The translations under genes were made by a program, and so were the position numbers. From the NCBI GenBank assembly GCA_028289505.1, contig JANQPK010000218.1, forward strand, positions 1-35,048: DNA of 35,048 bases, written 5' to 3'. Origin of the DNA: Cyclobacteriaceae bacterium. Lineage in GTDB: Bacteria > Bacteroidota > Bacteroidia > Cytophagales > Cyclobacteriaceae. Under the pieces are notes generated by a model. It made no database searches. It worked only from the letters and a program-made list of their open reading frames with translations, and was not told where the DNA came from. Below, one piece after another: positions 5,989 through 33,077 of the stretch; the first letter of the stretch is position 1, and every line of letters starts with the position of its first letter.

Positions 5989-6058
5989 AGGAAAAGTGGT
6001 TATCAATTCTCACCAATATCCAAATTTCCATTGGCGCAACCTTATTTCCAACTTTCAA

Positions 6059-9188: not shown

Positions 9189-9214
9189 GATTTTAGTGTT
9201 TAATATTCAAAGTT

Positions 9215-11635: not shown

Positions 11636-11685
11636 GGTTTGGGAGATTATTATTTAAAGCTATATTCATTTCCACTCAATGCTCA

Positions 11686-14067: not shown

Positions 14068-14125
14068 AGTGGTAAAGTTTAGAGTACCTATGAGGATGTA
14101 TTATACTCAAATTCATAATTCGTAA

Positions 14126-16555: not shown

Positions 16556-16584
16556 AGTCTTATTGGCTGCATGCTCTTGCTGTC

Positions 16585-18981
16585 CTACTCATATTTCAGT
16601 GCTTTCACAGGGTTGGAATTGGTGGCCTTCACCACATGATAGCTAATGGTAATTAAAGCAATAACCAATGCTACCATTCCTCCAACTATAAAAATCAATG
16701 GATTTATATCTACACGATAGGCGAAATTGGTGAGCCAATTCTTCAGAAATAGAAAAGCCATTGGGGTAGCAAAAACCAGGGAAATTAATACCAGTCTGGC
16801 AAAATTTCGCGAAAGCAGTGCCATCAATCCTAAGGTGGAAGCCCCCAATACTTTCCTGATACCTACTTCTTTTATCCTTCGTTCGGTAGCAATGGAAGCA
16901 AGCCCAAAAAGCCCTAAACATCCAATAAAAATGGACAACACGGCCATGATGGCAATAACATAACCCATCTGCTGGTCGGTTTGGTAGAGATTCTGAAAAT
17001 GATCATCTAGGAACTGGTAGTCAAAAGGGTATTTACTTACAAATTGGCCATATACTCTTTCAAGGTCCAGTAGAGATTGTCCTATGTTGGCACCATTTAA
17101 CTTAACCGACATCTCGCTAAACCCCCAGTCGGTATGGACCACCATTGAAAGTGTATTGACAGGGAAGTGCAAAGAATTGAAGTTAAAGTCCTTGGTTACA
17201 CCGATAATGGTACCTAAAGAATCATCCGGATACCACGAATGTCCTGCATTGACCCCAATTGGCTGATCAAGTCCAAGTTCTCTGGCTAGAGACTCGTTGA
17301 TAATAAATGCCAGGCCATCATCAGTGACATACTCCTTGGAAAAACCACGGCCTTCTAACAGTTCAATACCATACACTTCCAGGTAGTCGTGATCTACAGA
17401 TACATTAGATGTAGTGATTACCTCCGCTTCACTCCCTTCCTTCTTTATTTTAAATCCCCATTGATGAAAATTACTTCCAATCCTTTGACCAGAGGCAGTT
17501 ACCCCCAAAACATTAGATTCTTTAAGCAGTGCCAGCTTCATCTCTGCATAGTTTTCCATGGCCTCTTCATTAAGGCCTACCAAAATGATATGGTCTTTGT
17601 TGAATCCTATATCCTTGTTTTTAAGAAAATTAAGCTGTTGGACTACCACTAGGGTGCTAACAATTATGGCCAGGGCCAGGCTAAACTGAATCACTACCAT
17701 GGAATTGCCCAAAAAAGAATGCTGTCCAAATGCTTTGATCCCTTTAAGTACCGCTATAGGCTTAAATGAGGAGAGATAAAAGGAGGGGTACAATCCAGCT
17801 AAAACGCCAAGTAATATTGTGGTAGCTACTAGAGTTCCAATTAATAATGGATCAGTCAAAATAGGGCTTAGTGAAAGCTGCCGATCAATCAGGGCGTTGA
17901 GCAGGGGTAGAGCAAGCAACGCGATTAGTAAACCCACTATAAAAGCAATAAAGGCTAGAAATGTTGATTCAATGATAAACTGGGTAAACAATTGCTGCTT
18001 TATCGCTCCATTGGTCTTCCTAACCCCGATTTCCTTGGCTCTTCCGCTGGCTCTGGCCACCGTTAAGTTCATAAAATTGAAGCTGGCGATAACAATAATG
18101 AATAGCCCCACCAGGATAAATACCTGGATATAAGTTCCATTGAATTTTCTGTAGTTATTGTAGTCATGCTCTATATCAATAGAATTTAAGTGCACTTGAT
18201 CAAGTGGTTGTAAAAAGAGCTTATAAGCATCATTGATATCCTCTTCGCCGGTGCTTCTAATCAGATAATCGGGGTACAGCTCAGCCATATTAGCCAAATT
18301 GGCATCTGAGCGCAGTACGAAATAGGTAACAAGGTAGTTGCTTCCAAATTCTGAGTCAAAATCAGGATTGTCTGCAATTGACCTAACATTTAACAAGACA
18401 TTGAATTTAAGATGGCTGTTTTCAGGTACATTTGCCATCACCCCCCGGACTATATATTGATCACCACCAATTACCACGCTTTCTCCTACTACATCTATTC
18501 TATTAAACAGAGCCTGAGCGATATCTTCGGAAATTACTGCGTCATATGGACGATCCAATACCAAACCTGGATCGCCATGAATTAACTGGTAATCAAAGAT
18601 TTCCAGGAAACTACTATCGACTGCAGCTATATTTTCTACCAGTATACTATGATCACCATCAGCCATCATTCTTTCCCCAAGCCCCCAGAATCTGGTATAA
18701 GCCTCAATCTCCTGAAACTCGGCGGTCATGGTGGGGCCCATACCCGGCATACTGAGGGCTACATTTTGGGTATTGGTCCCTTCAAAGCTTTGCACTTCGC
18801 ATAAACGGTAGATTTGTTGTTTTTTTTCGTGGAATGAATCAAAGGACAATTCATCGGTCACAAAAAGGAAGATTACCAGGCATGCCGCCATCCCGATTGA
18901 CAAACTCAAAATATTGATGGCGGTTATGCCTTTATGCTTCAACAAGTTCCTGACTGCAATTTTTAGATAGTTTTTAAGCAT
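16585..18981 (-). CDS. ABC transporter permease, double FtsX/MacB-like (paralog e)
   Basis: 798 aa. N-terminus MLKNYLKIAVRNLLKHK, loops KEIGVRKTNGA and KEVGIRKVLGAS, C-terminus NPVKALKYE. Confidence 0.9.
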   Translation of the reverse strand: MLKNYLKIAVRNLLKHKGITAINILSLSIGMAACLVIFLFVTDELSFDSFHEKKQQIYRLCEVQSFEGTNTQNVALSMPGMGPTMTAEFQEIEAYTRFWGLGERMMADGDHSILVENIAAVDSSFLEIFDYQLIHGDPGLVLDRPYDAVISEDIAQALFNRIDVVGESVVIGGDQYIVRGVMANVPENSHLKFNVLLNVRSIADNPDFDSEFGSNYLVTYFVLRSDANLANMAELYPDYLIRSTGEEDINDAYKLFLQPLDQVHLNSIDIEHDYNNYRKFNGTYIQVFILVGLFIIVIASFNFMNLTVARASGRAKEIGVRKTNGAIKQQLFTQFIIESTFLAFIAFIVGLLIALLALPLLNALIDRQLSLSPILTDPLLIGTLVATTILLGVLAGLYPSFYLSSFKPIAVLKGIKAFGQHSFLGNSMVVIQFSLALAIIVSTLVVVQQLNFLKNKDIGFNKDHIILVGLNEEAMENYAEMKLALLKESNVLGVTASGQRIGSNFHQWGFKIKKEGSEAEVITTSNVSVDHDYLEVYGIELLEGRGFSKEYVTDDGLAFIINESLARELGLDQPIGVNAGHSWYPDDSLGTIIGVTKDFNFNSLHFPVNTLSMVVHTDWGFSEMSVKLNGANIGQSLLDLERVYGQFVSKYPFDYQFLDDHFQNLYQTDQQMGYVIAIMAVLSIFIGCLGLFGLASIATERRIKEVGIRKVLGASTLGLMALLSRNFARLVLISLVFATPMAFLFLKNWLTNFAYRVDINPLIFIVGGMVALVIALITISYHVVKATNSNPVKALKYE

Positions 18982-19009
18982 GGAGCGAAGAGCTTAGAGC
19001 ATGGAGTAA

Positions 19010-21430
19010 CTATTCTGCCCGCAGTGAATCCACGGGATTGGTCAATGCTGCTTTTCCGGTTTGGTAGGCAACTGTGATCCAGGCAATTAATAGCGTCAGC
19101 AATCCAGCTAGCAGGAAGACTCCTAATCCCAGCTCAACTTGATAGGCAAAATCAGCTAACCACCCACGCATGATCAACCAGGCCACCGGTGATGCCACGA
19201 TCAAAGCCAGTATTACCAGTATGGTAAACTCCCTAGAAAGCAATACCACCACGTTGGAACTGCTTGCTCCCAGAACCTTTCTGATGCCCACTTCCTTTTT
19301 TCTCCGCTCAGCGGTAAATGATGCTAACCCAATTAAACCCAAACAGGCGATGGAGATCGCAAGGGTTGCGAACACCGCAAATATTTGAGCTTGCCGGTCT
19401 TCATTGGCATACAATTGCTCATAAGTCTCATCAACAAAAACGTAATTGAATGGATCCTCGGGATTAAATTCTTCCCACTTGTCCTGAATAACCTGTAGCG
19501 CAACGGCAGGGTCTCCTGGTGCCACTCTCACCACATAGCTCCATGCCATATAAGGAGCTACAAAGTAAACCGTGGGTACAATTTCACGCTTCAGCGATTC
19601 AAAATGGAAATCCTTTATTACCCCAACAACTTTACCATTTCTCTCCTCCCATTGTCCTGCCTTCCAGTCGGTTAACTCCATACTGCCAAATGTTTTATTG
19701 ACGGCCGACTCATTGGTCCATCCCAGTTCTTTGACAGCGGCTTCGTTAAGGATAAATGCCTCAGTGGCATCTGAGGGAAAGTCCCTGGAGAAACTACGAC
19801 CAGCGACAATTTCAAAGCCCATAGTTTCAATAAAATCAAAGTCGGTCCAAACGGTTTGCATACCTCGACGTTGATCTTCCGGAACTCCTTCAGGACGGGT
19901 GGTTAAAGTGCTACTCAAATTACCTGGTGGCACCCTGGAAGAGGCAGCAGCGTTGACAATTTTGGTACTGTTGAGGAGTTCATCGTGGAATTGCTGGTAC
20001 CTTTCCCTCATGGCTATAGGCGTGCCAGGTAGTTTGATTAGGTGCTCCTTGTCAAAGCCCAGGTTCATATTGCGGCAGTAATCAAGCTGTTTGTACACCG
20101 CGGAGGTGATGATTAACAGTAATATCGACGCAGCAAACTGAAAAGTGACCAAAACCTTTCTTAAACCGGCACCTTTAAGTCCAATTTTGAATTTTCCCGA
20201 CAAGATGCTCACCGGTTTGAACCCGGAAATGAGTAGTGCGGGGTAACTGCCAGCCACTAAACCTACAAATACCGTGACTAGCAGCAGACCTATCAGCATG
20301 GGAATGTCGCTAAATAGATTCCAGGTGATTTCCCTACCTGCCAATTCATTGAATTCTCTAAGAAATAGTTTGGCCAGTAGAGCAGCTACTATCAGACAAA
20401 TCACCGCCAGTAAAGTACTCTCGCTTAAGAACTGACCAACTAGCTGAGACCGCTCGGCTCCCACAACTTTCCTAAGTCCTACCTCCTTGGCTCTTAAACT
20501 CGAGCGGGCAGTAGCAAGATTGATGAAATTGATGCAAGCGATCACTAATATGAACAAGGCAATAAATGAGAATGCGATTACATAAGTCCTATTCCCTCCT
20601 GGCAAAAAGTTGTCATAATCTGCGGAGTCGAGGTATAGATCAGTAAGCGCGTGCATTTTCAGTACCGGAGAGAAATCCTCCCAATTGGACAATTTAGCAG
20701 AAGTGAATTCGGCCAGCCGGAGTTGGTAATCCTTGGGGCTGGTATTTTCAGGAATTTTTACAAATGTCCAGACATAACCCTCACCCCAGTTCTCCAGTAC
20801 TACCTTTGAGAAAGCGTGTTGAGCGCAATTCATGGAAACCAGAACATCGACCTGAAATTGAGATTGCTTTGGAATCTCTTTTAGGATACCGGTGACGTTA
20901 AAATCGAGTTCGCGGATTTTGACAGTGCGTCCTATGGGATCGCTATCGCCAAAGTATTTTTGAGCAATTTTCTCGGTTATTACTATCGAGTAAGGGTCCA
21001 CCAATGCATCTGCTGGATTACCCTTTAACAAAGGAAAAGTAAACACTTCGAATACCTCAGGATCTACAAAAGCCAGTTTTTCTTCTATATAAAGTTCATT
21101 ACCAACCTCTACATATTCCCCACCTCTGGCGGCGATCCTGACTATTTCATCAAAATCGTCAAAATCAATTTTTAATTCGTCAGCCAATCGATATGGGCCT
21201 ATGGCACTATTGCTTCTTTCACCAGTCTGGGGATTGGTAGCCTGCAGGTTAAGCATATACACCTGGTTGCGATATTGGTGAAATCGGTCAAAGCTCAATT
21301 CGGTTTTGACGTATAGCATGATCAAAATCAAGCATGCCATACCCACGGCCAGTCCCAGTATATTAATCAAGGAATGTCCCTTATATCGCCAGAGATTTCG
21401 AAGCGCAGACTTTAAATAGTTTCTAAACAC
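19010..21430 (-). CDS. ABC transporter permease, double FtsX/MacB-like (paralog f)
   Basis: 806 aa. N-terminus MFRNYLKSALRNLWRYK, loops KEVGLRKVVGA and KEVGIRKVLGAS, C-terminus NPVDSLRAE. The GTG start overlaps the upstream ATPase stop by 8 nt. Confidence 0.9.
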   Translation of the reverse strand: MFRNYLKSALRNLWRYKGHSLINILGLAVGMACLILIMLYVKTELSFDRFHQYRNQVYMLNLQATNPQTGERSNSAIGPYRLADELKIDFDDFDEIVRIAARGGEYVEVGNELYIEEKLAFVDPEVFEVFTFPLLKGNPADALVDPYSIVITEKIAQKYFGDSDPIGRTVKIRELDFNVTGILKEIPKQSQFQVDVLVSMNCAQHAFSKVVLENWGEGYVWTFVKIPENTSPKDYQLRLAEFTSAKLSNWEDFSPVLKMHALTDLYLDSADYDNFLPGGNRTYVIAFSFIALFILVIACINFINLATARSSLRAKEVGLRKVVGAERSQLVGQFLSESTLLAVICLIVAALLAKLFLREFNELAGREITWNLFSDIPMLIGLLLVTVFVGLVAGSYPALLISGFKPVSILSGKFKIGLKGAGLRKVLVTFQFAASILLLIITSAVYKQLDYCRNMNLGFDKEHLIKLPGTPIAMRERYQQFHDELLNSTKIVNAAASSRVPPGNLSSTLTTRPEGVPEDQRRGMQTVWTDFDFIETMGFEIVAGRSFSRDFPSDATEAFILNEAAVKELGWTNESAVNKTFGSMELTDWKAGQWEERNGKVVGVIKDFHFESLKREIVPTVYFVAPYMAWSYVVRVAPGDPAVALQVIQDKWEEFNPEDPFNYVFVDETYEQLYANEDRQAQIFAVFATLAISIACLGLIGLASFTAERRKKEVGIRKVLGASSSNVVVLLSREFTILVILALIVASPVAWLIMRGWLADFAYQVELGLGVFLLAGLLTLLIAWITVAYQTGKAALTNPVDSLRAE

Positions 21431-22112
21431 GGAACTGCTCTTTTACATTTTCTGAAACTACCCGTCCATCCAATAACCTAATAATTCGGTGGGCGTAATT
21501 GGCGTCATAGGGAGAATGGGTTACCATCACAATAGTGGTACCTTCACGATTTAGCTCCGCCAACAAGCCCATCACTTCATCACCATTGACAGAATCAAGG
21601 TTACCGGTAGGTTCATCCGCCAGGATCAACTTGGGACCAGCCACTACCGCCCGGGCTATGGCTACCCGCTGTTGCTGACCTCCTGAAAGCTGTTGGGGAA
21701 AGTGATTTCGGCGGTTCATGATATGCATCCTCTTTAGTACCGCCTCTGTCATCTCTTTGCGCTGTTTGCTGGGTATTTTCAGGTATAGAAGGGGCAGCTC
21801 CACGTTTTCATAGACCGTCAGTTCGTCAATTAGATTGAAACTTTGGAATACAAACCCGATGGCACCTTTGCGCAGCTTTCCACGTTTGCTTTCTGAATAA
21901 CCCGCTACTTGGTATTCCATAAAATGGTATTCCCCGCCATCCGGATTGTCCAACAAACCTAGAATGTTGAGCAGGGTCGATTTGCCGCAGCCGGAAGGAC
22001 CCATAATGGCCACAAACTCTCCGTCTTTGATGTTTACATTGACCGAATCCAGGGCAGTGGTTTCCACCTCCTCGGTGGTGTATACTTTACTTAAATTGAC
22101 TGTTTGTATCAC
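21423..22112 (-). CDS. ABC transporter ATP-binding protein, MacB/LolD family (ATPase A, canonical motifs)
   Basis: Walker A GPSGCGKST, signature LSGGQQQRVAIARA, Walker B LILADEPTGNLD, H-loop VTHS. GTG start. Confidence 0.93.
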   Translation of the reverse strand: MIQTVNLSKVYTTEEVETTALDSVNVNIKDGEFVAIMGPSGCGKSTLLNILGLLDNPDGGEYHFMEYQVAGYSESKRGKLRKGAIGFVFQSFNLIDELTVYENVELPLLYLKIPSKQRKEMTEAVLKRMHIMNRRNHFPQQLSGGQQQRVAIARAVVAGPKLILADEPTGNLDSVNGDEVMGLLAELNREGTTIVMVTHSPYDANYAHRIIRLLDGRVVSENVKEQFRV

Positions 22113-22148
22113 GTTTTATGCAGTGTTTAGTGTTTATTTTTAAGCAAG

Positions 22149-22237
22149 AGCAACAGTGTTGAGCATACAGGTTGGTGCGCTGAACTTACCGTATGCTGTT
22201 GCCTGCGCGTCCGGCAGGCGGACTTCGCACCGTTGCT
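22149..22237 (-). other. GC-rich multi-hairpin (three-way-junction-like) intercistronic element between adaptor and ATPase genes
   Basis: The outer stem is AGCAACAGTG (22149-22158) with CACCGTTGCT (22228-22237), with one mismatch. Hairpin 1 is AGCATACAGG (22162-22171) with CCGTATGCT (22189-22197). Hairpin 2 is GCCTGC (22201-22206) with GCAGGC (22214-22219). There is no flanking U-run, so it is not a classical terminator. Confidence 0.45.
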
Positions 22238-22239
22238 GT

Positions 22240-23499
22240 TCATTTCAATAACAGTATTTCATTGTCCCCAAAATTTTCATAACTGGAGGTAATCACTTGC
22301 TCACCTTCAGCCAACCCGTCCAACAGCTCATAGTGCAAACTATTTTTTCGACCAAGCTTGATATCACGTTTGGTAGCTTGCGTACCATCTTCATTCAGCA
22401 CAAACACCCAATTCCCTCCACTGGATTGAAAGAATCCTCCGGTTGGCAGTAACAGGGCTTGGCCTGGGTTTCCTAATTCTACCCGTATGCGCAATGATTG
22501 TCCTCGCTTAATGCCCCGAGGAGTCTGGCCCTGGAATTCCATATCAACCACGAAATTGCCGCTGGTAATGGTAGGATATATTTTGGTCACTTCCATTTTG
22601 AAAACTTGTCCCGCCTGGTTTTCATAGGATGCCAGCTGTCCCACATTGATACGCGGTAGATACAATTCATCGACTTCAACTTGCAGCTTAAAGTCGTCCA
22701 CGATATCAATTTGACCCATACGCTCTCCTTGCTGTACTGACTGACCTATTTCTAATTGCTCAGAAGCAAATTGCCCCTCTTTGGGTGCTTTGATCACCAG
22801 GTTATCCAGTATGTTACCGACTGCCTCCAGACTCTTCCACATGCGGGCTTCAGAATCATTGAGTTGTTTCAGCTGTACAGATTTAAGTTCGAGTTCCTGT
22901 TGGTAGGCCGAGTTTACAATTTTTCGGCGCTTGGTGTTATAGTCATAGCGCTCTTTGGCTTCTTCGAATTCTTTTCTTGATATTACTTTTTCCTGGTACA
23001 GCTCCTGCTGTCGATCATATTCAGGTTTGGCCAACTGCAACTGGTAATCCACCTCGGCCAACTCTTTTTCCAAATTCTGGGTATTTTGATCTAGTAAAAG
23101 CCGAGAGGTTCGTAGATTATTAATCTGTTCATAAAGCTGGGCCTCCCGGTTTAGCACTTCAAGTTGAAGATCAGAGTTTGTCAAAGTGATCAAGGCCTCT
23201 CCTTTGCTGACCATAGTACCAGTCTCTGTGTTCAACTCTTTGACAATACCTCCTTCAATGGCATCCAGGTAGTAGGTTTCAATCGGCTGTACAATACCTG
23301 TTTCGGGGATCCATTCCTGGAAATCACCATGCGCCACCTTGGCAATGGTGATCTTGTCTATATCCACATTCAATTTTGACCGGTGGTCGGCAAAGATTAA
23401 GGTGTAGGCCACTAGTAACGTTAAAAGACCACCACCTGCCCAGGTGAGGATCTTTCTAGTAGTCCATTTCTTTTTCTCAAGCTGCCTGTCCATTCCCAT
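22240..23499 (-). CDS. HlyD-family efflux transporter periplasmic adaptor subunit
   Basis: The N-terminal TM anchor (ILTWAGGGLLTLLVAYTLIF) is followed by a long coiled-coil region rich in E/Q/L, then beta-barrel/lipoyl-like segments. The start is set at the ATG at 23499 (MGMDRQLEKKKW; the ATG at 23493 is equally possible). The track's 23544 start would place the promoter-like element inside the coding sequence. Confidence 0.88.
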   Translation of the reverse strand: MGMDRQLEKKKWTTRKILTWAGGGLLTLLVAYTLIFADHRSKLNVDIDKITIAKVAHGDFQEWIPETGIVQPIETYYLDAIEGGIVKELNTETGTMVSKGEALITLTNSDLQLEVLNREAQLYEQINNLRTSRLLLDQNTQNLEKELAEVDYQLQLAKPEYDRQQELYQEKVISRKEFEEAKERYDYNTKRRKIVNSAYQQELELKSVQLKQLNDSEARMWKSLEAVGNILDNLVIKAPKEGQFASEQLEIGQSVQQGERMGQIDIVDDFKLQVEVDELYLPRINVGQLASYENQAGQVFKMEVTKIYPTITSGNFVVDMEFQGQTPRGIKRGQSLRIRVELGNPGQALLLPTGGFFQSSGGNWVFVLNEDGTQATKRDIKLGRKNSLHYELLDGLAEGEQVITSSYENFGDNEILLLK

Positions 23500-23527
23500 A
23501 GTTGACAATATTTTGCACCAGACCGAG

Positions 23528-23543
23528 GCCAACAAGCATGCCA
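23528..23543 (-). promoter_or_regulatory. Candidate sigma-54 (-24/-12-like) promoter of the adaptor/ATPase/permease operon
   Basis: The minus strand reads TGGCATGCTTGTTGGC, against the consensus TGGCACG-N4-TTGCW. The GG is at the correct 10-nt spacing from TTG, but the -12 C is a G. The element lies 28 nt upstream of the ATG at 23499 and exactly 42 nt downstream of the dyad sites. A sigma-54 activator gene is adjacent. Confidence 0.4.
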
Positions 23544-23585
23544 AACCAAAAAAGTGAGTTTAGCTTGATTTAGGGGTGCTGGATT

Positions 23586-23619
23586 GTTCGTAAACGTGCT
23601 ATTTTGTTCGTAAGCGTAC
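23586..23619. promoter_or_regulatory. Two 14-bp dyad sites (GTTCGTAAACGTGC, GTTCGTAAGCGTAC), 20 bp start-to-start; candidate enhancer (UAS) for the NtrC-type regulator
   Basis: The sites lie in the divergent intergenic region between the adaptor operon and the regulator gene. The same motif pair recurs at 28965-28998 with identical spacing to a promoter-like element. Confidence 0.55.
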
Positions 23620-23719
23620 GCCTTATCCCACTACAAAGCCGATAAAGCGGGATCTACTGAAAGGAACAATTTTTGCAAAATTTGAGCGACAGAAGTTTTA
23701 ATTTGTATCTTTTCCATAA

Positions 23720-25111
23720 ATGAACCTAGCACGCCAAGGTAGAATATTGGTGGTAGATGATGATCAAGATGTACTATCTGCTGCCAGACTGTATCTCAAA
23801 AGGCACTTTGGGCAAGTAGATATACTGGACCGTCCTGACTCGATACCAGACTTGCTCCGCCAAGACACTTATGACGTCATACTACTGGATATGAACTTTA
23901 CCAAGGATGTTAGTAGTGGTAAAGAAGGATTCTTCTGGTTGGATAAAATTCTCAGTATCGATCCATCTGCGGTGGTGGTTATGTTCACAGCTTATGGAGA
24001 TGTAGAGCTGGCAGTTAAAGCCATCAAGGAAGGGGCTACGGATTTTACGGTAAAGCCCTGGGAAAACAAAAAACTGCAAGCCACCATACTGTCTGCCATG
24101 AAATTGAGGGCATCCAGGTTGGAATATGAAAAATTGCGCTCCTGGCAGCGTCAGGTAAGCGCCGACATAGACCACAAATACCAGGACATGATCGGGCAAA
24201 GTGAGCCTATGTTGAAACTATATCAGACCATTCAACAAGTTGCCAAAACTGATGCCAATGTTTTGATTTTGGGAGAGAATGGTACTGGCAAGGAACTAAT
24301 TGCCAGGGCTATACACCGTAACTCAAACCGTTCCCAGGAGGTTTTTGTGAATGTAGACCTGGGAGCACTTAGTGAGACATTATTTGAAAGTGAGCTTTTC
24401 GGTCACGTTAAAGGGGCCTTTACAGATGCCAAGGATGATCGTCCGGGACGTTTTGAAATTGCTTCAGCAGGATCCATATTCCTTGATGAAATCGGCAATT
24501 TATCACTCCCCATGCAAGCCAAACTTTTGACTGTGTTACAGAATAAAGAAGTCATTCGATTGGGGTCCAATAAGGTGATTCCCGTTGATGTAAGACAAAT
24601 ATTTGCCACCAACATGCATCTACATCAGATGGTGGGTGAGCACAAGTTTAGACAGGACCTGCTTTACCGGATCAATACCATTGAAATACAAGTACCTCCG
24701 TTGCGGGAGCGCAAAGAGGATATCCCTTTATTGGCAGAATACTTTTTGCAGCATTACGTAAAGAAGTATCAAAAAAGGATTCGATCCCTCAGTGAGTCAG
24801 CACTGAACAGAATGCAAAAATATCATTGGCCAGGAAACGTACGGGAGCTCCAACATGTAATGGAACGAGCTGTTATCATGAATAAAGGGCTGACCTTGAA
24901 TGCTGAGGACTTATTAATCAATACCAGATCATCTGTGGAGGCTGAAGAAGGCGACGATTTGGTTATTTCAAATTACAATTTGGAGCATATTGAAAGACTG
25001 GTAATCAAAAAGATTCTTAAAAAGTACCATGGCAGTGTTACCAAAGCCGCGAATGAATTAGGGCTTACCCGTACCTCTCTATATCGGCGAATGGAAAAAT
25101 ATGATCTTTAA
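23720..25111 (+). CDS. Sigma-54-dependent Fis-family response regulator (NtrC type)
   Basis: Receiver domain (VVDDDQD...ILLDMNF...KP), AAA+ domain (GENGTGKE Walker A, ESELFGHVKGAFTDA which is a GAFTGA variant, IFLDEIG Walker B), and a C-terminal Fis-type HTH (AANELGLTRTSLYRRMEKY). Confidence 0.93.
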   Translation: MNLARQGRILVVDDDQDVLSAARLYLKRHFGQVDILDRPDSIPDLLRQDTYDVILLDMNFTKDVSSGKEGFFWLDKILSIDPSAVVVMFTAYGDVELAVKAIKEGATDFTVKPWENKKLQATILSAMKLRASRLEYEKLRSWQRQVSADIDHKYQDMIGQSEPMLKLYQTIQQVAKTDANVLILGENGTGKELIARAIHRNSNRSQEVFVNVDLGALSETLFESELFGHVKGAFTDAKDDRPGRFEIASAGSIFLDEIGNLSLPMQAKLLTVLQNKEVIRLGSNKVIPVDVRQIFATNMHLHQMVGEHKFRQDLLYRINTIEIQVPPLRERKEDIPLLAEYFLQHYVKKYQKRIRSLSESALNRMQKYHWPGNVRELQHVMERAVIMNKGLTLNAEDLLINTRSSVEAEEGDDLVISNYNLEHIERLVIKKILKKYHGSVTKAANELGLTRTSLYRRMEKYDL

Positions 25112-26453
25112 AAACTTCAGGTTACAAGTTGTTTGCCGAACGCTGATAATCGGACTGTCAATAGGGGGCAGTATTTACTTTTTCCTGGAACACCAGTTAG
25201 GCTATTCACTACTGCTATTGGTAGTAGCTGTGGTAGGTATCTACAATATTATTTACTACCTGGAATCCATTCATCGAAAGCTGGTCTTTTTTCTGGAATC
25301 AATTGAAAATCTTGATTTTACGGTAAAGTTTAGCAAGGATGACAAACAGGGAAAGGGATTTCGGGAGCTGAACAAGGCGTTCAATCAGGTATTGGATGAA
25401 TTTAAGGAGGTACGAGCTGAGAAAGAGGCCCATTTGCAGTATTTGCACACCGTAGTGCAATACGTTAAGGTCGGTCTGATCTCCTTTGATCAGGATGGAA
25501 GGATTGGATTGATCAACAATGCGGCAGTATTGTTGTTGGATATCGGATACATACGTAACCTATCTGAACTAAAGCAGGATCATCATGATGCATGGACACT
25601 ATTTACTGAAATTCAGCCTGGAGAAAGCAAAATGCTTTCAACATCTTCAGAAGATGGTGATCATCAATTGTCTGTGAATGCTACCGAGCTGAGGTTAAGA
25701 GGTAAGGTGTACCGGTCAATCTCTATCACTAATATTCAATCGGAGTTACAGCAGAAAGAAATCGAGGCCTGGCAGAACCTGGCCAAGATCCTGCGGCACG
25801 AGATTATGAACTCAATCACTCCCATAGTATCCCATGTGGAAACGCTAAACGAGATGCTGGAGGATGATACTTCCTGGACCCAGGATCGAAAGCATTTATC
25901 CGCTAGCTCAACTGACGATTTGACCGAAGCTTTGACCACCATAGAAAAAAGAAGTAAAGGATTGCTTCATTTCGTGGATGCGTACCGAAGCTTTAGCGAA
26001 ATACCAACACCAACCTTTGAAATCATTAGGGTTGCCGACCTTTTCGAGCGACTTACAAGATTGTTTCAGGGAGAAATTAAAAACTCAAGTATTACCGTTA
26101 ATCAGGTTATTTTACCCATTGAACTAAAGGTACAGGCCGACCAGGAGTTGATCGATACCGTGCTGATCAATCTATTCAAGAATGCCATGGAAGCGGTATA
26201 TCAGCAGCAAACTCCAACCATTGATTTAAAGGCCTACTTAAACGACTCTGCCAGAGTCATAATTGAGGTTATTGACAATGGGACTGGCATCATCCCGGAA
26301 GCCCAAAGCAAAATTTTTGTACCCTTTTATACTACCAAAGAGAAAGGCTCTGGAATCGGCCTTGCCTTATCCAGACAAATTATGCAAATGCACCGTGGTA
26401 ATTTAACGGTTGCCTCCCAGCCAGGACATACAGCTTTTAGCTTATTCTTCTAG
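25101..26453 (+). CDS. Sensor histidine kinase with two closely spaced N-terminal TM helices (minimal external loop)
   Basis: TM1 is LIIGLSIGGSIYFFL, the loop is EHQLG and TM2 is YSLLLLVVAVVGIYNIIYYL. These are followed by a PAS-like region, the H-box RHEIMNSITP, the N-box LFKNAMEA, and the G-boxes DNGTGI and GSGIGLALSRQI. The start overlaps the regulator stop by 11 nt. Confidence 0.9.
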   Translation: MIFKNFRLQVVCRTLIIGLSIGGSIYFFLEHQLGYSLLLLVVAVVGIYNIIYYLESIHRKLVFFLESIENLDFTVKFSKDDKQGKGFRELNKAFNQVLDEFKEVRAEKEAHLQYLHTVVQYVKVGLISFDQDGRIGLINNAAVLLLDIGYIRNLSELKQDHHDAWTLFTEIQPGESKMLSTSSEDGDHQLSVNATELRLRGKVYRSISITNIQSELQQKEIEAWQNLAKILRHEIMNSITPIVSHVETLNEMLEDDTSWTQDRKHLSASSTDDLTEALTTIEKRSKGLLHFVDAYRSFSEIPTPTFEIIRVADLFERLTRLFQGEIKNSSITVNQVILPIELKVQADQELIDTVLINLFKNAMEAVYQQQTPTIDLKAYLNDSARVIIEVIDNGTGIIPEAQSKIFVPFYTTKEKGSGIGLALSRQIMQMHRGNLTVASQPGHTAFSLFF

Positions 26454-26462
26454 ACCATTTCT

Positions 26463-28874
26463 TTATTCACTGCGAAGTGAATTCACAGGATTGGTGAGGG
26501 CAACTTTGATGGATTGGTAACCTACTGTCAACAATGCAATCAATACGGCCATCAAACCACCGGCCAAGAAACTAAATCCCTCAATATTCACTTTGTAGGC
26601 AAATCCTTCCAGCCAGTTTGAAATAAAGAAATAGGCGATAGGAGCAGCTAATACGAATGAAATTGCCACTAATTTGGTAACATCTTTAGACATCAGCATC
26701 ATTACCTGTGCTGCACTAGCCCCCAGTACTTTGCGAATGCTGATTTCTTTGGATCGTTGTTCGGCGGCATATGCTGCCAATCCCAATAATCCAAGGCAGG
26801 CGATGACAATAGCCAATGAGGTAAAAATGACAAATATTCTCAATAAGTTCATCTCGCTTCGATACAACTGATCCAGGTTATCCTCCAAAAATGAATAGGT
26901 CAATGGTGTGTCGGGTGCATACTGCTTCCATTTGGATTCAATTAATTGAATTTGCTCCTGTGGGTTTCCGGGTTCCAATCTTACTGAAATCACATTTCCA
27001 CTACCCAGTATAATGGCCATCGGTCGAATTCGGTTCTTTAAACTTTCGAAATGGTAATCTTTTACCACGCCGATTACATCGAGCATACTTCCTTGGGGAC
27101 CATTGGAGAAAGTGATGATCTTTTGATTTTCATGATTTTCCCAACCAATTGACTTCATGGCGGCTTCATTAAGAATGATTGCTGATGAATCACCGGGAAA
27201 ATCCTCTGAAAAGTATCTTCCGGCATTCATCTCAATACCTAATGTGGCCAGATGTTTAAAGTCAGCCCGGTACCATCGCAGCAGATGGTCTTGTTCATTT
27301 TCTCCCGCCGCCTTGAAGACGGTACTATTGTCGAGCCGGGGGGGTAAAGAGCTGCTGTTACTCACCATTTTAATGCCTTGGTACTGCTCTAGTTCATTTT
27401 GAAAGACTTGTTTATTGGTACCCAACGCATAGGTGTTTTCAACGATGAGCACATTCTCCTGATCAAAACCAAGGTTTCTGGTCTGCATCATGTTCAGTTG
27501 TTTAAATACTATCAGAGTGCTCACGATTAAGCTGATGGAAATGGTGAATTGAAATACCACCAGGACGCTTCTTATGGCACTACTCCTAAACCCTGCTCCA
27601 ATTTTACCTTTTAGCACTTGAGCTGGCTTAAAAGAAGAGAGAAATAGAGAGGGATAGCTCCCGGCAAGTAGGCCAATGAATATGCTCAAGCCTGTAAATA
27701 CTAATATTAAACGTCCGTCTAGTAATGACGAGAAAGAGATTTCTTTGCCAGCGATGGTATTAAAAACGGGTAGCAGAATCGAAATCAAAGCCATTGCCAA
27801 CAGCGTGGATATTAAACTCAGCAGCATCGACTCCGTTAGGAACTGATTGATGAGACCAACTCTAGTAGCACCAGCGGTTTTGCGAACCCCCACTTCCTTA
27901 GCGCGATTTGCAGACCTGGCAGTGGACAAATTCATGAAGTTGATACAAGCAATAACCACAATAAAAATGGCGATAACCCCGAAAATATATAAATAGGTGA
28001 TATCCCCGTTAACTGCTATTTCATCATCCAGCTTAGATCTCAAATGAATGTCGGTTAGGGGTTGCAATGAAAATCCATAATCACCTCCTTGCGCTTTGAA
28101 CTCTGCCAAAGACATTCCCAGGTATTGTTGAATTTCAGGGCCGATATACTTTTCAATGAAGATCTCAAACTTGGCTTCCAGCTCCTTCCAGTTCACCAAG
28201 GGGTTAAGAACCAAGTAGGTGTAGTAGTTATTGCTGGTCCATTCCCCTGTCAAGTCTCCCATTGTCTTCAACGATACAATCAAATCGAAGTCAAAATGAG
28301 CGTTTTTGGGTGGATCGGCAACTAAACCCGATACCTCAAAATTGGTATCACCAACTTTTAATGATTTACCCACCGGGGTTTCATCTCCAACTTTGTAGTC
28401 GAAATACTTTTTAGCCAATGATTCTGTTAATACTACTTTATTGGGATCTTTTAATGCGGTGTGTTTATCGCCTTGTAGCAGCTCAAATGAGAAGACACTG
28501 AAAAAGTTGGAGTCAGCAATCAGTGCATGATTCTCGATGAATGAACGATCATCTACAGCAACCGGTAAATCATCTCGAAAATCCAGCCGGGTAGCTTCTT
28601 CGACTTCAGGAAATTCTGTAACTGCAGTTTGGGCAAACGGCAAGCAACTGGTAGCTAAATGGGTGGCTTGGTCTGATATTTTGGCTCTGGTGGTAACCCT
28701 GAAAATATTATCGGCCTTAGCATGGAAGCGATCATAACTTAATTCATCAGCAATGTAAACTACAATTAGTAAACTTGCTGCGATCCCTACAGTCAATCCC
28801 AGTATATTGATGAAGGCGTAAATCCTTTCCTTCTGCAAGTTTCTAAGCGCGATTTTTAAATAGTTTTTCAGCAT
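26463..28874 (-). CDS. ABC transporter permease, double FtsX/MacB-like (paralog g, separate transcription unit)
   Basis: 803 aa. N-terminus MLKNYLKIALRNLQKER, loops KEVGVRKTAGA and KEISIRKVLGAS, C-terminus NPVNSLRSE. It is convergent with the kinase gene, with a 9-nt gap. Confidence 0.9.
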   Translation of the reverse strand: MLKNYLKIALRNLQKERIYAFINILGLTVGIAASLLIVVYIADELSYDRFHAKADNIFRVTTRAKISDQATHLATSCLPFAQTAVTEFPEVEEATRLDFRDDLPVAVDDRSFIENHALIADSNFFSVFSFELLQGDKHTALKDPNKVVLTESLAKKYFDYKVGDETPVGKSLKVGDTNFEVSGLVADPPKNAHFDFDLIVSLKTMGDLTGEWTSNNYYTYLVLNPLVNWKELEAKFEIFIEKYIGPEIQQYLGMSLAEFKAQGGDYGFSLQPLTDIHLRSKLDDEIAVNGDITYLYIFGVIAIFIVVIACINFMNLSTARSANRAKEVGVRKTAGATRVGLINQFLTESMLLSLISTLLAMALISILLPVFNTIAGKEISFSSLLDGRLILVFTGLSIFIGLLAGSYPSLFLSSFKPAQVLKGKIGAGFRSSAIRSVLVVFQFTISISLIVSTLIVFKQLNMMQTRNLGFDQENVLIVENTYALGTNKQVFQNELEQYQGIKMVSNSSSLPPRLDNSTVFKAAGENEQDHLLRWYRADFKHLATLGIEMNAGRYFSEDFPGDSSAIILNEAAMKSIGWENHENQKIITFSNGPQGSMLDVIGVVKDYHFESLKNRIRPMAIILGSGNVISVRLEPGNPQEQIQLIESKWKQYAPDTPLTYSFLEDNLDQLYRSEMNLLRIFVIFTSLAIVIACLGLLGLAAYAAEQRSKEISIRKVLGASAAQVMMLMSKDVTKLVAISFVLAAPIAYFFISNWLEGFAYKVNIEGFSFLAGGLMAVLIALLTVGYQSIKVALTNPVNSLRSE

Positions 28875-28906
28875 GGTCCTGTCACTTGTGGTTTTGGCAG
28901 GTATAG

Positions 28907-28922
28907 ATCAAGAACTATTCCA
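28907..28922 (-). promoter_or_regulatory. Candidate sigma-54 (-24/-12-like) promoter of permease paralog g
   Basis: The minus strand reads TGGAATAGTTCTTGAT (TGG-N9-TTG, with the -12 C replaced by A). It lies 32 nt upstream of the ATG at 28874 and exactly 42 nt downstream of the dyad pair. This is the same geometry as at 23528-23619. Confidence 0.35.
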
Positions 28923-28964
28923 TTGGTAAAAAGCCTGAAATCATGAAGATTAGGGTTGCTCGAT

Positions 28965-28998
28965 GAACGGTAGCGAACGATATGGTTCGCTAGCGTAC
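28965..28998. promoter_or_regulatory. Two 14-bp dyad sites (GAACGGTAGCGAAC, GTTCGCTAGCGTAC), 20 bp start-to-start; second candidate enhancer
   Basis: This is the same GTTCG-N4-CGWAC-type dyad as at 23586-23619. Here the two sites also form a larger palindrome, TAGCGAAC-N6-GTTCGCTA. Confidence 0.5.
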
Positions 28999-29113: not shown

Positions 29114-29344
29114 TTAGCGTCCTTTCTGAATATGAGACGGCTGATCATCATACCACTTTTCCTCAAAAGTAGCCGTCGATGCTACTCCATCCTTCAACAC
29201 TCGTATCACCATCCAGATCAGTAAAAAATTCATGATCAGAAAAAGATTGAAAACTACTGCCCAGGTGAAACCCAATACAGGAGTCATGGAGTAGATGCAG
29301 AGCATGATGGTAGTGCCGTAAACAGGAATTTGGATGTTTTTCAT
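29114..29344 (-). CDS. Small hypothetical membrane protein (two predicted TM helices)
   Basis: 76 aa with two hydrophobic segments (TTIMLCIYSMTPVLGFTWAVVF and LFLIMNFLLIWMVI) and a polar tail. It lies downstream of the amine oxidase gene on the same strand. No recognisable family. Confidence 0.4.
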   Translation of the reverse strand: MKNIQIPVYGTTIMLCIYSMTPVLGFTWAVVFNLFLIMNFLLIWMVIRVLKDGVASTATFEEKWYDDQPSHIQKGR

Positions 29345-29424
29345 ATTCTTCTAACAGAATCTGAAGGAATTGGTTTTTCATTTTCTGTATTTCTTTTTTA
29401 GGATCTATCCAATATGCGGGGTAA

Positions 29425-30594
29425 CTACCCTTGTATTTCACTTACCGACCTGATGGCAGAACGAGCTGCGGTATGTACACTACCCCAATCATTTCCAATT
29501 GTGTAGGCGGTTCCCGCAAAAAAGAGCTTATTGGCTACTGATTTTCCCAGAGTCCTGATTCTTCTCCAGTTTTCGTGGTCATTGACATAAGCTCCTTGAG
29601 CAAAAGGTTCATTATTCCAATTCTGTGATATATGGTTGATGTAATTTGCGGATGCCTGACCTGCAAATATTCCATCAAGTTCTTCTAACATATATTCAAT
29701 TAATGCTTTGTCCGATAATTGTCGATAGGGAAGGGTTCCTGAACCCACAGTGAATAGACCTAAAACCTGCCGCGTTGAGTTTTGTCCATATGAGGCATCG
29801 TAATATAACTTCTGTCCTGCAGTCTGAGGCTTGATATTAAATCCTACCGCAGCGGGATAAAACTTTTCTGAAAACTCAATAAAAGCTTTAAAGCCATCCC
29901 AAACCGTGACCTTGCTGATGGCATTCAATTTGTCATTAGGCAATGGTGGTGTAAATGAAATAGCACCATTTTGTAATATTTTTACCGGAGCGGTAATGAT
30001 GATTTTGTCAGCTGTAAATGCTTCATCTATGGTATTAACCAAGACTTTATCCTGGGAATAATCGATAGCTTCTACCACCTGATTGAATTTTATTTTAGCC
30101 TGTATAGAGGGGATAATATATTGTTCGAAAAAATCCAACCAGGATGAGTCAATAAACTTCTGGTCAATTTTAAATCCCAATTTTCTTATGGAAACCTTTC
30201 TTCCTTCATACCACCCGAAATCAACATTGGTATGGTAAGATTTGGTTTTAGTAGTGATCTTAATGGCAGGATCGTTCACGATTTCCTTAAAAATATCACG
30301 CTTAACATGTAGCCATTCTGCTCCCAGTGGAACAGGAAAATCCACAAAATCTAAGGTTCTTTTCATTCTGCCTCCGTAGACTGGGGAGGCCTCTATAATT
30401 TGAAAGTCAATACCTTGTTGATTCAGTAAATGTCCTGCGGTCAGTCCAGCAGCACCTGCACCTATGATCAATACATCACCTTTGAAATCAGTGGTATTGC
30501 CATAGTGTGCAGACTTACCAGAAGCCAAGCTTGCTTGAAAGGGAATACTCAATCCCAAAAGACCGCATATCTTGACAAACTCTTTCCTGGTCAT
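29425..30594 (-). CDS. Flavin-containing amine oxidase family NAD(P)/FAD-dependent oxidoreductase with N-terminal signal-like sequence
   Basis: The dinucleotide-binding motif is DVLIIGAGAAGLTAGHLL...IIEASPVYGGRM, and the C-terminal amine-oxidase signature is LFFAGTAY...GSVHTAARSA. The N-terminus MTRKEFVKICGLLGLSIPFQASLASG resembles a Tat/Sec signal. Confidence 0.8.
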   Translation of the reverse strand: MTRKEFVKICGLLGLSIPFQASLASGKSAHYGNTTDFKGDVLIIGAGAAGLTAGHLLNQQGIDFQIIEASPVYGGRMKRTLDFVDFPVPLGAEWLHVKRDIFKEIVNDPAIKITTKTKSYHTNVDFGWYEGRKVSIRKLGFKIDQKFIDSSWLDFFEQYIIPSIQAKIKFNQVVEAIDYSQDKVLVNTIDEAFTADKIIITAPVKILQNGAISFTPPLPNDKLNAISKVTVWDGFKAFIEFSEKFYPAAVGFNIKPQTAGQKLYYDASYGQNSTRQVLGLFTVGSGTLPYRQLSDKALIEYMLEELDGIFAGQASANYINHISQNWNNEPFAQGAYVNDHENWRRIRTLGKSVANKLFFAGTAYTIGNDWGSVHTAARSAIRSVSEIQG

Positions 30595-30677: not shown

Positions 30678-31808
30678 GTGTTAAGTTCATCACCTTTATC
30701 AACCTATAAAAAGGTTCTATCTGAAGTGATCAATACCAGAAGCATAATAAAGAGATGGGCGTTATTCGTATTGGCCTGGACCCTGATCGTTTATTTTTAT
30801 TGCGCCCTAACCATCTTCGGATTGAAGCCATTCTTTCTTCAAAGTCCACTCACGGAATATTTTTATTCGGGATTCGTTCATTTGGAGGTCTTCCTGACCG
30901 GATTGATTTTCGGGACCCTGTTTGAATTTGTCAATTCCATAACTGATTATTCCGGTTTTAGAAAAAAGCCTTTTGGTTTTATCATTTTAATTAAAAGTGT
31001 GCTTTATTTCGTTTCACTGGTAATATGTTTCGTGATCGTTTTTGCACTTTTCTATTACCTTGAAATCCTTTCACCTGAGCATCTTGCTTTCTTCAGACAG
31101 AAAATGTTGACCTTCCGATTTCTGGTCCCCATTGTGGCCTACTTCTCTTTCTTCATCGTTTTGATATACTTTATTATCGTGGTCAATAAAAAATTTGGGC
31201 CTGGTGTTTTAGTTGACCTTCTCAGAGGAAAATACTATCACCCCCGGGAAGAACAATTGATCCTGCTTTTCATTGATCTTAAGGGCTCCACTACTATTGC
31301 AGAAAGTATGGGTCATGAAAAGTACAGCCAATTCTTAAGAGAGTGTGTCCAGCTGCTAACCCCGGTGCTGATTAAGAACCAGGCCAAGGTTTATCAATAT
31401 GTTGGAGATGAGATCGTGCTTCACTGGAAAATAGAGGAGGGGCTTGAACGATTGAAGTGTCTTGATACTTTCTTTGAATTCAGGAAAAGAATAGACCAAC
31501 GCAAAGAACATTTCCAAAATAAGTATGGAGTGTATCCTGAATTTAAAGCTGGCATGGATACAGGAGAAGTGACCATCACCGAGATCGGAGACATAAAACG
31601 CGAGATTGCTTTTCATGGTGATGTACTGAACACGGCATCTCGGCTTGAAAAGGAATGTAATAAATATGGAAAGTGGCTATTGGTGACTGAGAACCTTATG
31701 GATAAAATCACAACTGACAATGGGTATCAATTTGAATTCTTGGATGATATCCTGTTAAAGGGTAAGCAGAAAAGGGTTAAGTTTTTTGCGGTGAGTCATT
31801 CAAGTTGA
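30678..31808 (+). CDS. Membrane-anchored class III nucleotidyl (adenylate/guanylate-type) cyclase
   Basis: About 170 aa containing about six hydrophobic helices, then the cyclase catalytic domain: LLFIDLKGSTTIAE (metal Asp), YVGDEIVL (second Asp) and FHGDVLNTASRLE (Asn/Arg). The track start is GTG; a GTG 15 codons downstream is an alternative. Confidence 0.85.
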   Translation: MLSSSPLSTYKKVLSEVINTRSIIKRWALFVLAWTLIVYFYCALTIFGLKPFFLQSPLTEYFYSGFVHLEVFLTGLIFGTLFEFVNSITDYSGFRKKPFGFIILIKSVLYFVSLVICFVIVFALFYYLEILSPEHLAFFRQKMLTFRFLVPIVAYFSFFIVLIYFIIVVNKKFGPGVLVDLLRGKYYHPREEQLILLFIDLKGSTTIAESMGHEKYSQFLRECVQLLTPVLIKNQAKVYQYVGDEIVLHWKIEEGLERLKCLDTFFEFRKRIDQRKEHFQNKYGVYPEFKAGMDTGEVTITEIGDIKREIAFHGDVLNTASRLEKECNKYGKWLLVTENLMDKITTDNGYQFEFLDDILLKGKQKRVKFFAVSHSS

Positions 31809-31832
31809 TAACGGGAGATAATACGGTTGCTA

Positions 31833-33077
31833 TTAGAATATTGGATGGTTAGAGAGGTATGTGCTGTAAATCATGATAAAGGCAAATGCCAATACCGCTA
31901 ATGTGATACCGAACATAAAGATGTTATAAGAGACTTTGACCAAATGATATTTCCTTCTTAGCACTAAACCCAGGTTGTAAAGGTCGATCGACATATTTTC
32001 GTACAATAGGTGATTATCTGCTCTTAATAGCTCCATATCAGACAGATATCGTTCCAACGGCAGTTGGGTAAAATTACCAAAGAAAAGGATGCTGCTTTTT
32101 CTTTGAATAAGATCGATATCCGGTGATATATTATGGGTGATATTGGGCTTCGCCGATTGAATAGCAAATATCAAAGAACCCAGGCATGATAGCAGTAAAA
32201 TGGCAATGGGAATACCGAATCTAAAATATTCTATCCCGGAATTGCCTAAAAATGCCAAACCAGAACCTATTATGGCCACGATACTAGATAGAATAATGCT
32301 GTTTAGACTCAACATCATATTAGCTTTATTGTCTGCAATTGCGCTAAGGTTAACGTGATTTCGATAGGTGACGCGATACATGGTTTCTGTACCTCTGCCA
32401 GTTTTTTCAACTAGCGAATCCCTGTTCCTGTTTTTATAAAGCTTCTTCAACCTCGATTGCTGCTTTTCGATGTTTTTGACTCGCCGTGGTCCCAACCAAT
32501 TTTGCGCTGCTGTGGTCAAGAAGTTGGATTTGGTTAAGAAATCGAGCTGCACATGCTCCCATTTTTCATCGGTAAATGATTGATTAAGTACGGCCTGCCA
32601 TTCATTGCGTAACAATTGACCCTGATCAAAGAAGCTTTTCTTTCCAGTATTTAGAATACCAGCATCGTGCAGGATCTTTTTCAGCAGCGTATCTGGTTGG
32701 CTTTCTACCCGGGTAGAAAGAATTAATTCTGATATTATACTTTTTCTGGCATTAGAAACTTCCCTGGTAGACAGGTAGTCTTCAGCCATGCGGACACTTT
32801 CTATTTCATGGCCAGAATAGGTAAAGCAATAGCCGGTGTCTTGAAACCAAGCTGCTATCAATAGATTCTCCAGGTCCTCACCGGTCAGAGAATAGTGCTC
32901 TGCTATTCTGGTACAGGCTGCCGCTAGCTGTGAGGTATGCTGGTAGTTGTGATATGAATAATCTTTCGAAAGCCTGGTGTGAAGCAATTCTTTCACATAG
33001 GAGGCAACCTGATCCAGCAACCCGGGAGTGGTATGCTGCAGATTTACCGTTTTGTTCTGTATTTCTTCACCAGTCAT
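31833..33077 (-). CDS. HD-domain protein fused to a Pycsar-effector-like (DUF5706/PycTM-type) transmembrane domain
   Basis: The N-terminus is HD-like (YHNYQHT...AAWFQDTGY...ILHDAG). From about residue 235 the C-terminal half has the SAIADNKANMML helix, two TM helices, the SSILFFGNF segment and a final TM helix. From memory this is the layout of DUF5706 / Pycsar TM effectors; it was not verified by search. Confidence 0.65.
   Translation of the reverse strand: MTGEEIQNKTVNLQHTTPGLLDQVASYVKELLHTRLSKDYSYHNYQHTSQLAAACTRIAEHYSLTGEDLENLLIAAWFQDTGYCFTYSGHEIESVRMAEDYLSTREVSNARKSIISELILSTRVESQPDTLLKKILHDAGILNTGKKSFFDQGQLLRNEWQAVLNQSFTDEKWEHVQLDFLTKSNFLTTAAQNWLGPRRVKNIEKQQSRLKKLYKNRNRDSLVEKTGRGTETMYRVTYRNHVNLSAIADNKANMMLSLNSIILSSIVAIIGSGLAFLGNSGIEYFRFGIPIAILLLSCLGSLIFAIQSAKPNITHNISPDIDLIQRKSSILFFGNFTQLPLERYLSDMELLRADNHLLYENMSIDLYNLGLVLRRKYHLVKVSYNIFMFGITLAVLAFAFIMIYSTYLSNHPIF

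Follow-up and report, generated by a model that had tools for sequence, protein, structure and literature searches.

A probable enhancer-dependent sigma-54 control region upstream of a stand-alone permease gene beside a MacB-type exporter operon in Cyclobacteriaceae

Gene organisation of the locus

The window (the whole stretch of 35,048 nucleotides that was analysed) contains an adaptor operon on the minus strand, a two-component system on the plus strand and, beyond the latter, a separate permease gene (Table 1). Pfam assigns to the operon an HlyD-type adaptor, two ABC ATPases and six permeases, whose genes are separated by short gaps or overlap. The seventh permease gene, referred to here as permease g, is intact and convergent with the kinase gene, and its product is 26-41% identical to the six operon permeases, which is the same range as that found among all seven. 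The gene order permeases, ATPase and HlyD, with the regulator and kinase genes diverging from HlyD, is conserved in the 80 related loci (L001-L080) that formed our comparison set. No Rfam family was detected anywhere in the 35-kb window, and rpoN is absent from it.

The response regulator matches the sigma-54 activation domain over its full length (PF00158, Sigma54_activat, E 1.7e-65) together with AAA_lid_14, and both the receiver domain (PF00072) and the C-terminal Fis-type HTH (PF02954) are present. Its loop reads GAFTDA, and G[AS]FTDA was found in all 78 orthologues read; the canonical form GAFTGA occurs in two neighbouring paralogues. GAFTDA has been listed as a tolerated GAFTGA variant, and a Desulfovibrio regulator carrying it has an assigned regulon (PMC4641369). 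The best NCBIfam similarities of the regulator include AtoC, NtrC and ZraR, with PrsR scoring highest (405 bits against a cut-off of 503, compared to 381 against 714 for AtoC and 331 against 559 for NtrC). As every score is below the curated cut-off, the protein is a member of no named equivalog (NtrC, AtoC, ZraR or PrsR). The nearest orthologues (77-90%) are labelled Bacteroidia, Cyclobacteriaceae, Roseivirgaceae, Cytophagales and Rapidithrix.

When the histidine kinase was inspected by eye, two N-terminal hydrophobic membrane helices were seen to be joined by only about five residues, and for this reason the kinase appears to be without a periplasmic sensor domain. This helix layout recalls the intramembrane-sensing kinases that work with their transporter. 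In addition, about 45-60 nt separate a GG(T/A)A(Y)(M)AW-TTTG element from the downstream start codon of the regulator gene, and this element is conserved at the same position in most of the loci L001-L080. In the window it reads GGAACAATTTTTGC (23663-23676, plus strand) and may serve the regulator-kinase operon as a housekeeping -7 box of the Bacteroidetes type.

Several neighbouring genes were also recorded. The last operon permease gene is followed on the minus strand, after a gap of 52 nt, by a gene (4351-6006) for a thioredoxin-reductase-like flavoprotein with a fused cyclic-nucleotide-binding domain; this gene, which is followed by an alpha/beta hydrolase gene, may be co-transcribed with the exporter operon. 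Between an amine-oxidase-like gene and the permease g enhancer there is a hydrophobic ORF of 76 aa (29114-29344, minus strand) with no NCBIfam match. Further on, a nucleotide cyclase (30678-31808, plus strand; PycC, E 6.5e-11) and a PycTM effector-domain protein (31833-33077, minus strand; PycTM/2TM effector, E 1e-12) gave weak Pycsar-like matches, and their genes (30678-33077) are convergent and do not form one operon.

Table 1. Coordinates of the control regions and genes in the window
Feature	Coordinates	Strand	Description
Permease g control element, whole	28907-28998	-	92 bp, upstream of permease g
Distal dyad, permease g enhancer	28985-28998	-	GTACGCTAGCGAAC on transcribed strand; centre about -95.5; perfect match to GTWCG-N4-CGWAC
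Proximal dyad, permease g enhancer	28965-28978	-	GTTCGCTACCGTTC; centre about -75.5; one mismatch to GTWCG-N4-CGWAC
Permease g spacer	28923-28964	-	42 nt
A/T tracts of the permease g spacer	28928-28932, 28939-28942, 28949-28952	-	About -10 to -6, -20 to -17 and -30 to -27 from the T of TGG
Core -24/-12-type promoter of permease g	28907-28922	-	TGGAATAGTTCTTGAT; predicted start near 28896
Permease g	26463-28874	-	803 aa, duplicated MacB_PCD/FtsX permease; PF12704, PF02687
Adaptor-operon control element, whole	23527-23619	-	Upstream of the HlyD-ABC-six-permease operon
Distal dyad, adaptor-operon enhancer	23606-23619	-	GTACGCTTACGAAC; position conserved in related loci
Proximal dyad, adaptor-operon enhancer	23586-23599	-	GCACGTTTACGAAC
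Adaptor-operon spacer	23544-23585	-	42 nt; A/T tracts in the same phase
Adaptor-operon core promoter	23527-23543	-	TGGCATGCTTGTTGGCC; predicted start near 23517
Adaptor operon	6059-23499	-	Pfam; short gaps or overlapping genes
HlyD-type adaptor	22240-23499	-	Pfam
ABC ATPase	21423-22112	-	Pfam
Five permeases	9215-21430	-	800-aa MacB_PCD/FtsX; Pfam
Second ATPase	8487-9188	-	Pfam
Sixth permease	6059-8497	-	Pfam
NtrC-family response regulator	23720-25111	+	REC, sigma-54 AAA+, HTH_8; presumed dyad binder
Histidine kinase	25101-26453	+	Pfam HATPase_c

The two control regions share one geometry

Upstream of the permease g start codon (ATG at 28874) the sequence contains a proximal and a distal dyad (GAACGGTAGCGAAC and GTTCGCTAGCGTAC, respectively, as written), which lie 20 bp apart from start to start with 6 nt between them and are followed by the spacer and the core promoter. 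The original prediction had described this pair of dyads, a promoter on the minus strand and a spacer of exactly 42 nt both here and at the adaptor operon. All of its coordinates and sequences were correct to the base, i.e. the dyads and their 20-bp distance, the spacer length at both units and the 16-base promoter listed in Table 1. At the adaptor operon the two dyads are likewise separated by 6 nt, the minus-strand promoter reads TGGCATGCTTGTTGG at 23543-23529, and the ATG is at 23499 or 23493. The common geometry consists of two 14-bp dyads (GTWCG-N4-CGWAC) 20 bp apart, a 42-nt spacer and TGG-N8-TTG.

The pattern GTWCGNNNNCGWAC, with at most one mismatch allowed, returned only these four dyads in the 35-kb window, where 0.8 would be expected. 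A dyad pair 20 or 21 bp apart followed by 42 or 43 nt and TGG-N8-YYG, which was observed twice, did not appear in any of 300 first-order Markov simulations, and a relaxed composite scan of the real window returned the two control regions only. Thus, the dyad-spacer-promoter arrangement is more than chance would give.

The spacers themselves agree at only 15 of 42 positions, and this does not support the idea that the permease g region is a duplicate of the operon control region. It had also been claimed that both spacers carry an AGCA(C/A)CCCTAA stretch. The 11-mers TTAGGGGTGCT (23570-23580) and TTAGGGTTGCT (28950-28960) are indeed present and differ by one mismatch, but beyond its A/T part the stretch is not conserved in the orthologues of either unit. 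Relative to the promoter it is offset by 1 nt between the units, its register being 20 bp in the operon spacer and 19 bp in the permease g spacer. A rough hand estimate makes a chance origin of the shared 11-mer in the two window spacers unlikely; it could represent a weak third half-site that only this genome has, or be coincidental.

Promoters, spacer lengths and A/T phasing in related loci

A relaxed dyad pair together with a -24/-12-type promoter was detected between the HlyD and sigma-54 regulator genes in 58 of the 80 related loci, and about 60 Cytophagales loci combine this dyad pair with a TGGCAY..TTGTTGGC promoter that is strongly conserved. This family promoter is almost invariant (tTGGCAC(A/G)(C/T)TTGTTGGCAa, seen in 61 related loci), and its -12 element is TTGG, not TTGC. 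In the HlyD promoters of L003, L004, L007 and L048 the two elements are closer by one base (TGGCAYAYTGTTGGC or TGGCACACTATTGGC), which brings the GC to the canonical distance from the GG; in the majority it is one base further.

When the distance from the proximal dyad to TGG was compared across about 70 promoters, only values of 42/43, 52-55 and 63-65 nt were found, with nothing between. The shortest class comprises both window units and L001-L008, most loci belong to the 52-55-nt class, and the longest spacers occur in L060, L040 and the second unit of L016. The dyad-to-promoter spacers therefore step by one helical turn.

Anchoring 61 promoters on TGG revealed A/T-rich blocks at -10..-6, -20..-17, -30..-27, -40..-37 and -51..-49, the A/T fraction alternating between about 0.3-0.45 and about 0.9. 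The amplitude of this periodicity peaks at 10-10.5 bp and was reached by none of 10,000 permutations. At the 13 tract positions of the family, the permease g spacer has A/T at 12 and the operon spacer at 11, and 11-12 of the 13 are A/T in all five 42/43-nt spacers. A/T tracts phased with the helical repeat are the classical signature of intrinsically bent DNA, which suggests that these spacers may be curved.

The original prediction had pointed to a single T-run near TGG in each spacer (plus-strand A-runs at 23548-23553 and 28928-28932) as a possible bend in place of IHF. Both runs are there, and the idea appears to have been right but understated. Since both window spacers fit the family profile, each run is the promoter-proximal member of a phased set, one of three to five A/T tracts about 10 bp apart. 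In line with this proposal, the phased tracts occur family-wide, and the IHF consensus WATCARNNNNTTR was not found on either strand of either control region.

The family also contains further units of this kind. In eight relatives (L016, L017, L030, L041, L052, L054, L058 and L061) a second dyad-plus-promoter unit lies just after the kinase gene; this unit begins with an ATPase2-like gene and carries dyads of its own together with a TGGCAT..TTGGCA promoter. For seven of the eight, the spacing class is that of the operon in the same genome, and in L016 the second unit is one turn longer (65 vs 54 nt). Multi-unit regulons are thus a recurrent design in this family.

The permease g promoter and its conservation

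The two core promoters of the window differ markedly in their resemblance to the family. When scored with a matrix of 48 unique family promoters, the adaptor-operon promoter ranks first in the window (24.6 bits), and the same matrix revealed no second family-type promoter inside the adaptor operon. The permease g core scores -4.7 bits, which ranks it 87th of about 70,000 positions and fifth among 4,402 intergenic positions. It deviates from the family consensus by A instead of C at -23 and by AT instead of GC at -12/-11. The GG at -25/-24 is present within TGG at both units (TGGCA at the operon, TGGAA at permease g), and the distance between the elements is TGG-N8-TTG at both units and in the 61 related promoters. 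A canonical TTGC, with GC at -13/-12 and ten bases after GG, is absent from both window promoters. The operon has TTGG, its GC being displaced by one base, and permease g has TTGA; the TTG with G at -13 is kept. Position -23 varies naturally in promoters of the operon type too, as the adaptor promoter of L008 reads TGGTAT. A sigma-70-type scan gave nothing relevant near the permease g element.

By sequence alone, the permease g core would not be called a promoter. What makes it credible is its exact distance from the dyads, the 42 nt specific to this clade, and its conservation in orthologues. Scans of species-level genome and metagenome contigs returned only relatives with 48-50% identity to permease g, and an exact look-up gave no record; the orthologues, at 76, 73 and 78% identity, came only from a large protein search. 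In all three loci (L241, L244 and L245) a dyad pair 20 bp apart lies just upstream of the permease g orthologue and is followed by a spacer of 43, 42 and 42 nt and by the cores TGGAATAGTTCTTGTT, TGGCATATTTCTTGTT and TGGAATAGTTATTGTT, respectively. The orthologous cores are nearly identical (TGGAATAGTTCTTG; TGG(A/C)ATA(G/T)TT(C/A)TTG), with 14 of 16 bases of the window core retained in L241 and near-identity in L245 and L244, and two of the orthologues keep the A at -23. The 42/43-nt spacing is maintained, and a four-way alignment showed that the invariant columns are concentrated in five spots, namely the dyads, the bases AAT at about -28 and TT at about -9, the core and the start codon, whereas the rest of the spacer sequence has drifted. 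Nevertheless, A/T is found at 11-12 of the 13 tract positions in all four spacers of the permease g type, and so it is the length and the A/T phasing of the spacer, not its primary sequence, that are conserved. The permease g type of core (TGG-M-AT..TT-M-TTG-W-T) seems to be a maintained, weaker variant of the family promoter.

The same data bear on whether the core is used at all. The dyads could bind the regulator without TGGAAT-N5-TTGAT functioning as a sigma-54 promoter; permease g would then depend on read-through or on a housekeeping-type promoter that escaped recognition, and the bound regulator would act as a modulator, decoy or roadblock. The poor matrix score of the core would agree with this, and no minus-strand terminator was predicted between 29425 and the dyads, so that read-through into permease g from 29114-30594 is conceivable. 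However, a core without function would hardly be kept almost base for base at the same distance from the dyads in three orthologous loci while the spacer drifted. Moreover, no nAnnTTTG box (the Bacteroidetes-type housekeeping -7 box) was found in the 246 nt before the permease g ATG, dyads included. We consider this alternative unlikely, and a working, weaker promoter remains the preferred reading of the core.

Another possibility is that the permease g region is a decaying, no longer functional copy of the operon control region that was carried along with a relocated permease gene. Besides the degenerate core, the 11-mer that the two spacers share with one mismatch could be seen as a trace of such an origin, and no permease follows the kinase gene in the close relatives L002, L004, L005 and L008. 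Decay is nevertheless difficult to reconcile with an intact gene, with the low identity of the two spacers (15/42) and with the maintenance of dyads, spacing, A/T phase and core in orthologues whose proteins are 73-78% identical, and we give this explanation hardly any credence.

The main operon of L241 is orthologous to that of the window (permease a 85%, ATPase2 90%), and the permease g orthologue follows it after an opposite-strand beta-lactamase gene instead of lying beyond the two-component system. As the gene sits elsewhere in this genome, the private enhancer and promoter travel with it. In L245 the permease g orthologue (210-2622) is split between two gene calls of 227 and 578 aa, probably because of a frameshift or an assembly error, and the enhancer and promoter upstream are intact.

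More distant permease g orthologues (56-68%; L242, L243, L246, L247 and L248) are located beside an HslV-like gene and have no dyads. They share TGCAACCTT-N15-17-CATCT(T/A) about 30-70 nt upstream of the start, which looks like a different promoter class. The comparison suggests that the permease g gene was rewired into the sigma-54 regulon in the clade of the window.

A proposed mechanism of co-regulation

Taken as a whole, 28907-28998 is probably the control region of permease g, comprising an enhancer and an enhancer-dependent sigma-54 promoter, and would be co-regulated with the adaptor operon. The reading of the original prediction, an enhancer-spacer-promoter module that places both units in one regulon, fits the comparative data, i.e. 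the 58 of 80 loci, the eight second units and the three permease g orthologues. Sigma-54 regulons have been reported for Bacteroidota (PMC12316311).

The presumed assignment of the adjacent regulator to the dyads follows from their co-location, and this leaves room for a different regulator, e.g. a paralogous Fis-type HTH protein encoded elsewhere. Paralogous sigma-54 regulators do occur in related loci, and in L241 no sigma-54-type two-component system was found within 10 kb on either side of the permease g orthologue, the sole two-component pair there being an unrelated His_kinase/LytTR pair. On the other hand, the dyad pair is directly upstream of the regulator gene in most of the 80 loci, the second units of relatives adjoin its kinase gene, and the orthologous main operon is present just upstream in L241. 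Binding by another regulator is consequently quite improbable in our opinion, and the adjacent NtrC-family protein is taken as the dyad binder in what follows.

From the anatomy, conservation, stepped spacing, A/T phasing and domain content observed here we infer a mechanism in which the dyad-binding protein, the RpoN dependence, the start site, the bend and the signal are all putative. Two dimers of the regulator would bind the dyads through their HTH_8 domains, and with centres near -75 and -95 they would occupy the same face of the helix. The spacer A/T tracts, repeated every ~10 bp, would pre-bend the DNA, and because of this the regulator could reach the RNA polymerase-sigma-54 complex at TGGAAT-N5-TTGAT across an unusually short distance and without IHF. 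The membrane-embedded kinase would phosphorylate the regulator, which would then oligomerise and open the promoter by its ATPase activity. The same module, with a stronger core promoter, would drive the 17-kb adaptor-ATPase-six-permease operon, and as one module would control both units, the operon and permease g would answer one signal. The weaker core of permease g may mean that its output is lower or depends more on the activator. If Bce-type modules are a guide, the transporter could itself be involved in sensing, although this is a conjecture.

The dyad centres are situated only about 63 and 83 bp from -12, and this short distance would explain a tight constraint on helical phase and curvature. 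It is possible, and we put it forward tentatively, that the family represents a rigid short-loop form of sigma-54 activation, characterised by an enhancer only about 60-85 bp from -12, a pre-bend by phased A/T tracts in place of IHF, spacers that can change by whole helical turns only (42/43, 53/54, 64), a lineage-specific GAFTDA loop, a -12 element without the canonical GC and cores whose strength is tuned to each unit, with TTGG-C as the strong form at the operon and TTG-W-T as the weak form at permease g.

These results provide a putative binding motif, a set of targets and a promoter geometry for a two-component system that is uncharacterised but widespread in marine and soil Cytophagales and appears to control large batteries of MacB-type exporters, and they place a stand-alone permease paralogue in what is probably the same regulon as the operon. 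The approximately 70 natural variants of one enhancer-promoter design, among which only whole-turn spacer changes and A/T phasing survive, are also ready-made data on how enhancer-dependent promoters manage short DNA loops without IHF. The work has no direct medical or applied consequence.

Comparison with known systems

Sigma-54 promoters upstream of FtsX-like (COG0577) permeases, in Bacteroidota among others, have been predicted computationally (PMC12316311, 2025). In the passages retrieved by keyword, that paper deals with promoter enrichment only, and neither a motif for an enhancer, an assigned regulator, a rule for the spacing nor a regulon of several units was seen there. In the literature searched we found no experimental study of the present system, nor any report of the dyad motif, of an assigned regulator, of stepped spacers or phased tracts, or of the separate permease g unit.

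As exporters, the proteins of the window resemble the type VII ABC exporters MacAB, DarBCD and ADOP in having MacB_PCD and FtsX domains, a separate or partner ATPase and an HlyD/RND_mfp adaptor. Unlike these, they score below the curated cut-offs for DarB/C/D, MacB and ADOP (for the duplicated ADOP permease TIGR03434, 295.5 bits against 622.3), and the locus has seven divergent paralogous permeases and two ATPases.

In the BceRS-BceAB modules of Firmicutes, the genes of a two-component system lie next to those of the FtsX-family ABC transporter that it controls. The window is similar in that its two-component system adjoins an FtsX-family transporter and its kinase has two helices with almost no external loop. 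It differs in its regulator, which is of the NtrC type and presumably sigma-54-dependent and not of the OmpR type, and in its transporter, which has an HlyD adaptor and seven duplicated permeases.

The closest parallels for the switch itself are NtrC at glnAp2, ZraR and AtoC, with which the window shares a REC-AAA+-HTH_8 response regulator. As in the glnAp2 enhancer, two strong dyad sites lie on one helical face upstream of a -24/-12 promoter, and activation is proposed to occur at a distance without an IHF site. The differences are nevertheless several. The site consensus GTWCG-N4-CGWAC is not that of NtrC, the loop is GAFTDA, and the -12 element is TTGG, TTGA or TTGT. With dyad centres about 63 and 83 bp away from -12, the enhancer is closer than the usual 100-140 bp (PMC2709558), and the window spacers carry phased A/T tracts, whereas the glnAp2 spacer does not (PMC2709558). 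In contrast to the IHF-assisted sigma-54 promoters of nifH, Pu, pspA and glnHp2, which rely on an IHF site, the bend here is apparently written into the DNA as phased A/T tracts. Despite these differences, the module would work like an NtrC-type enhancer at an IHF-independent promoter and is a well-supported case of a known and ordinary kind of bacterial gene switch.
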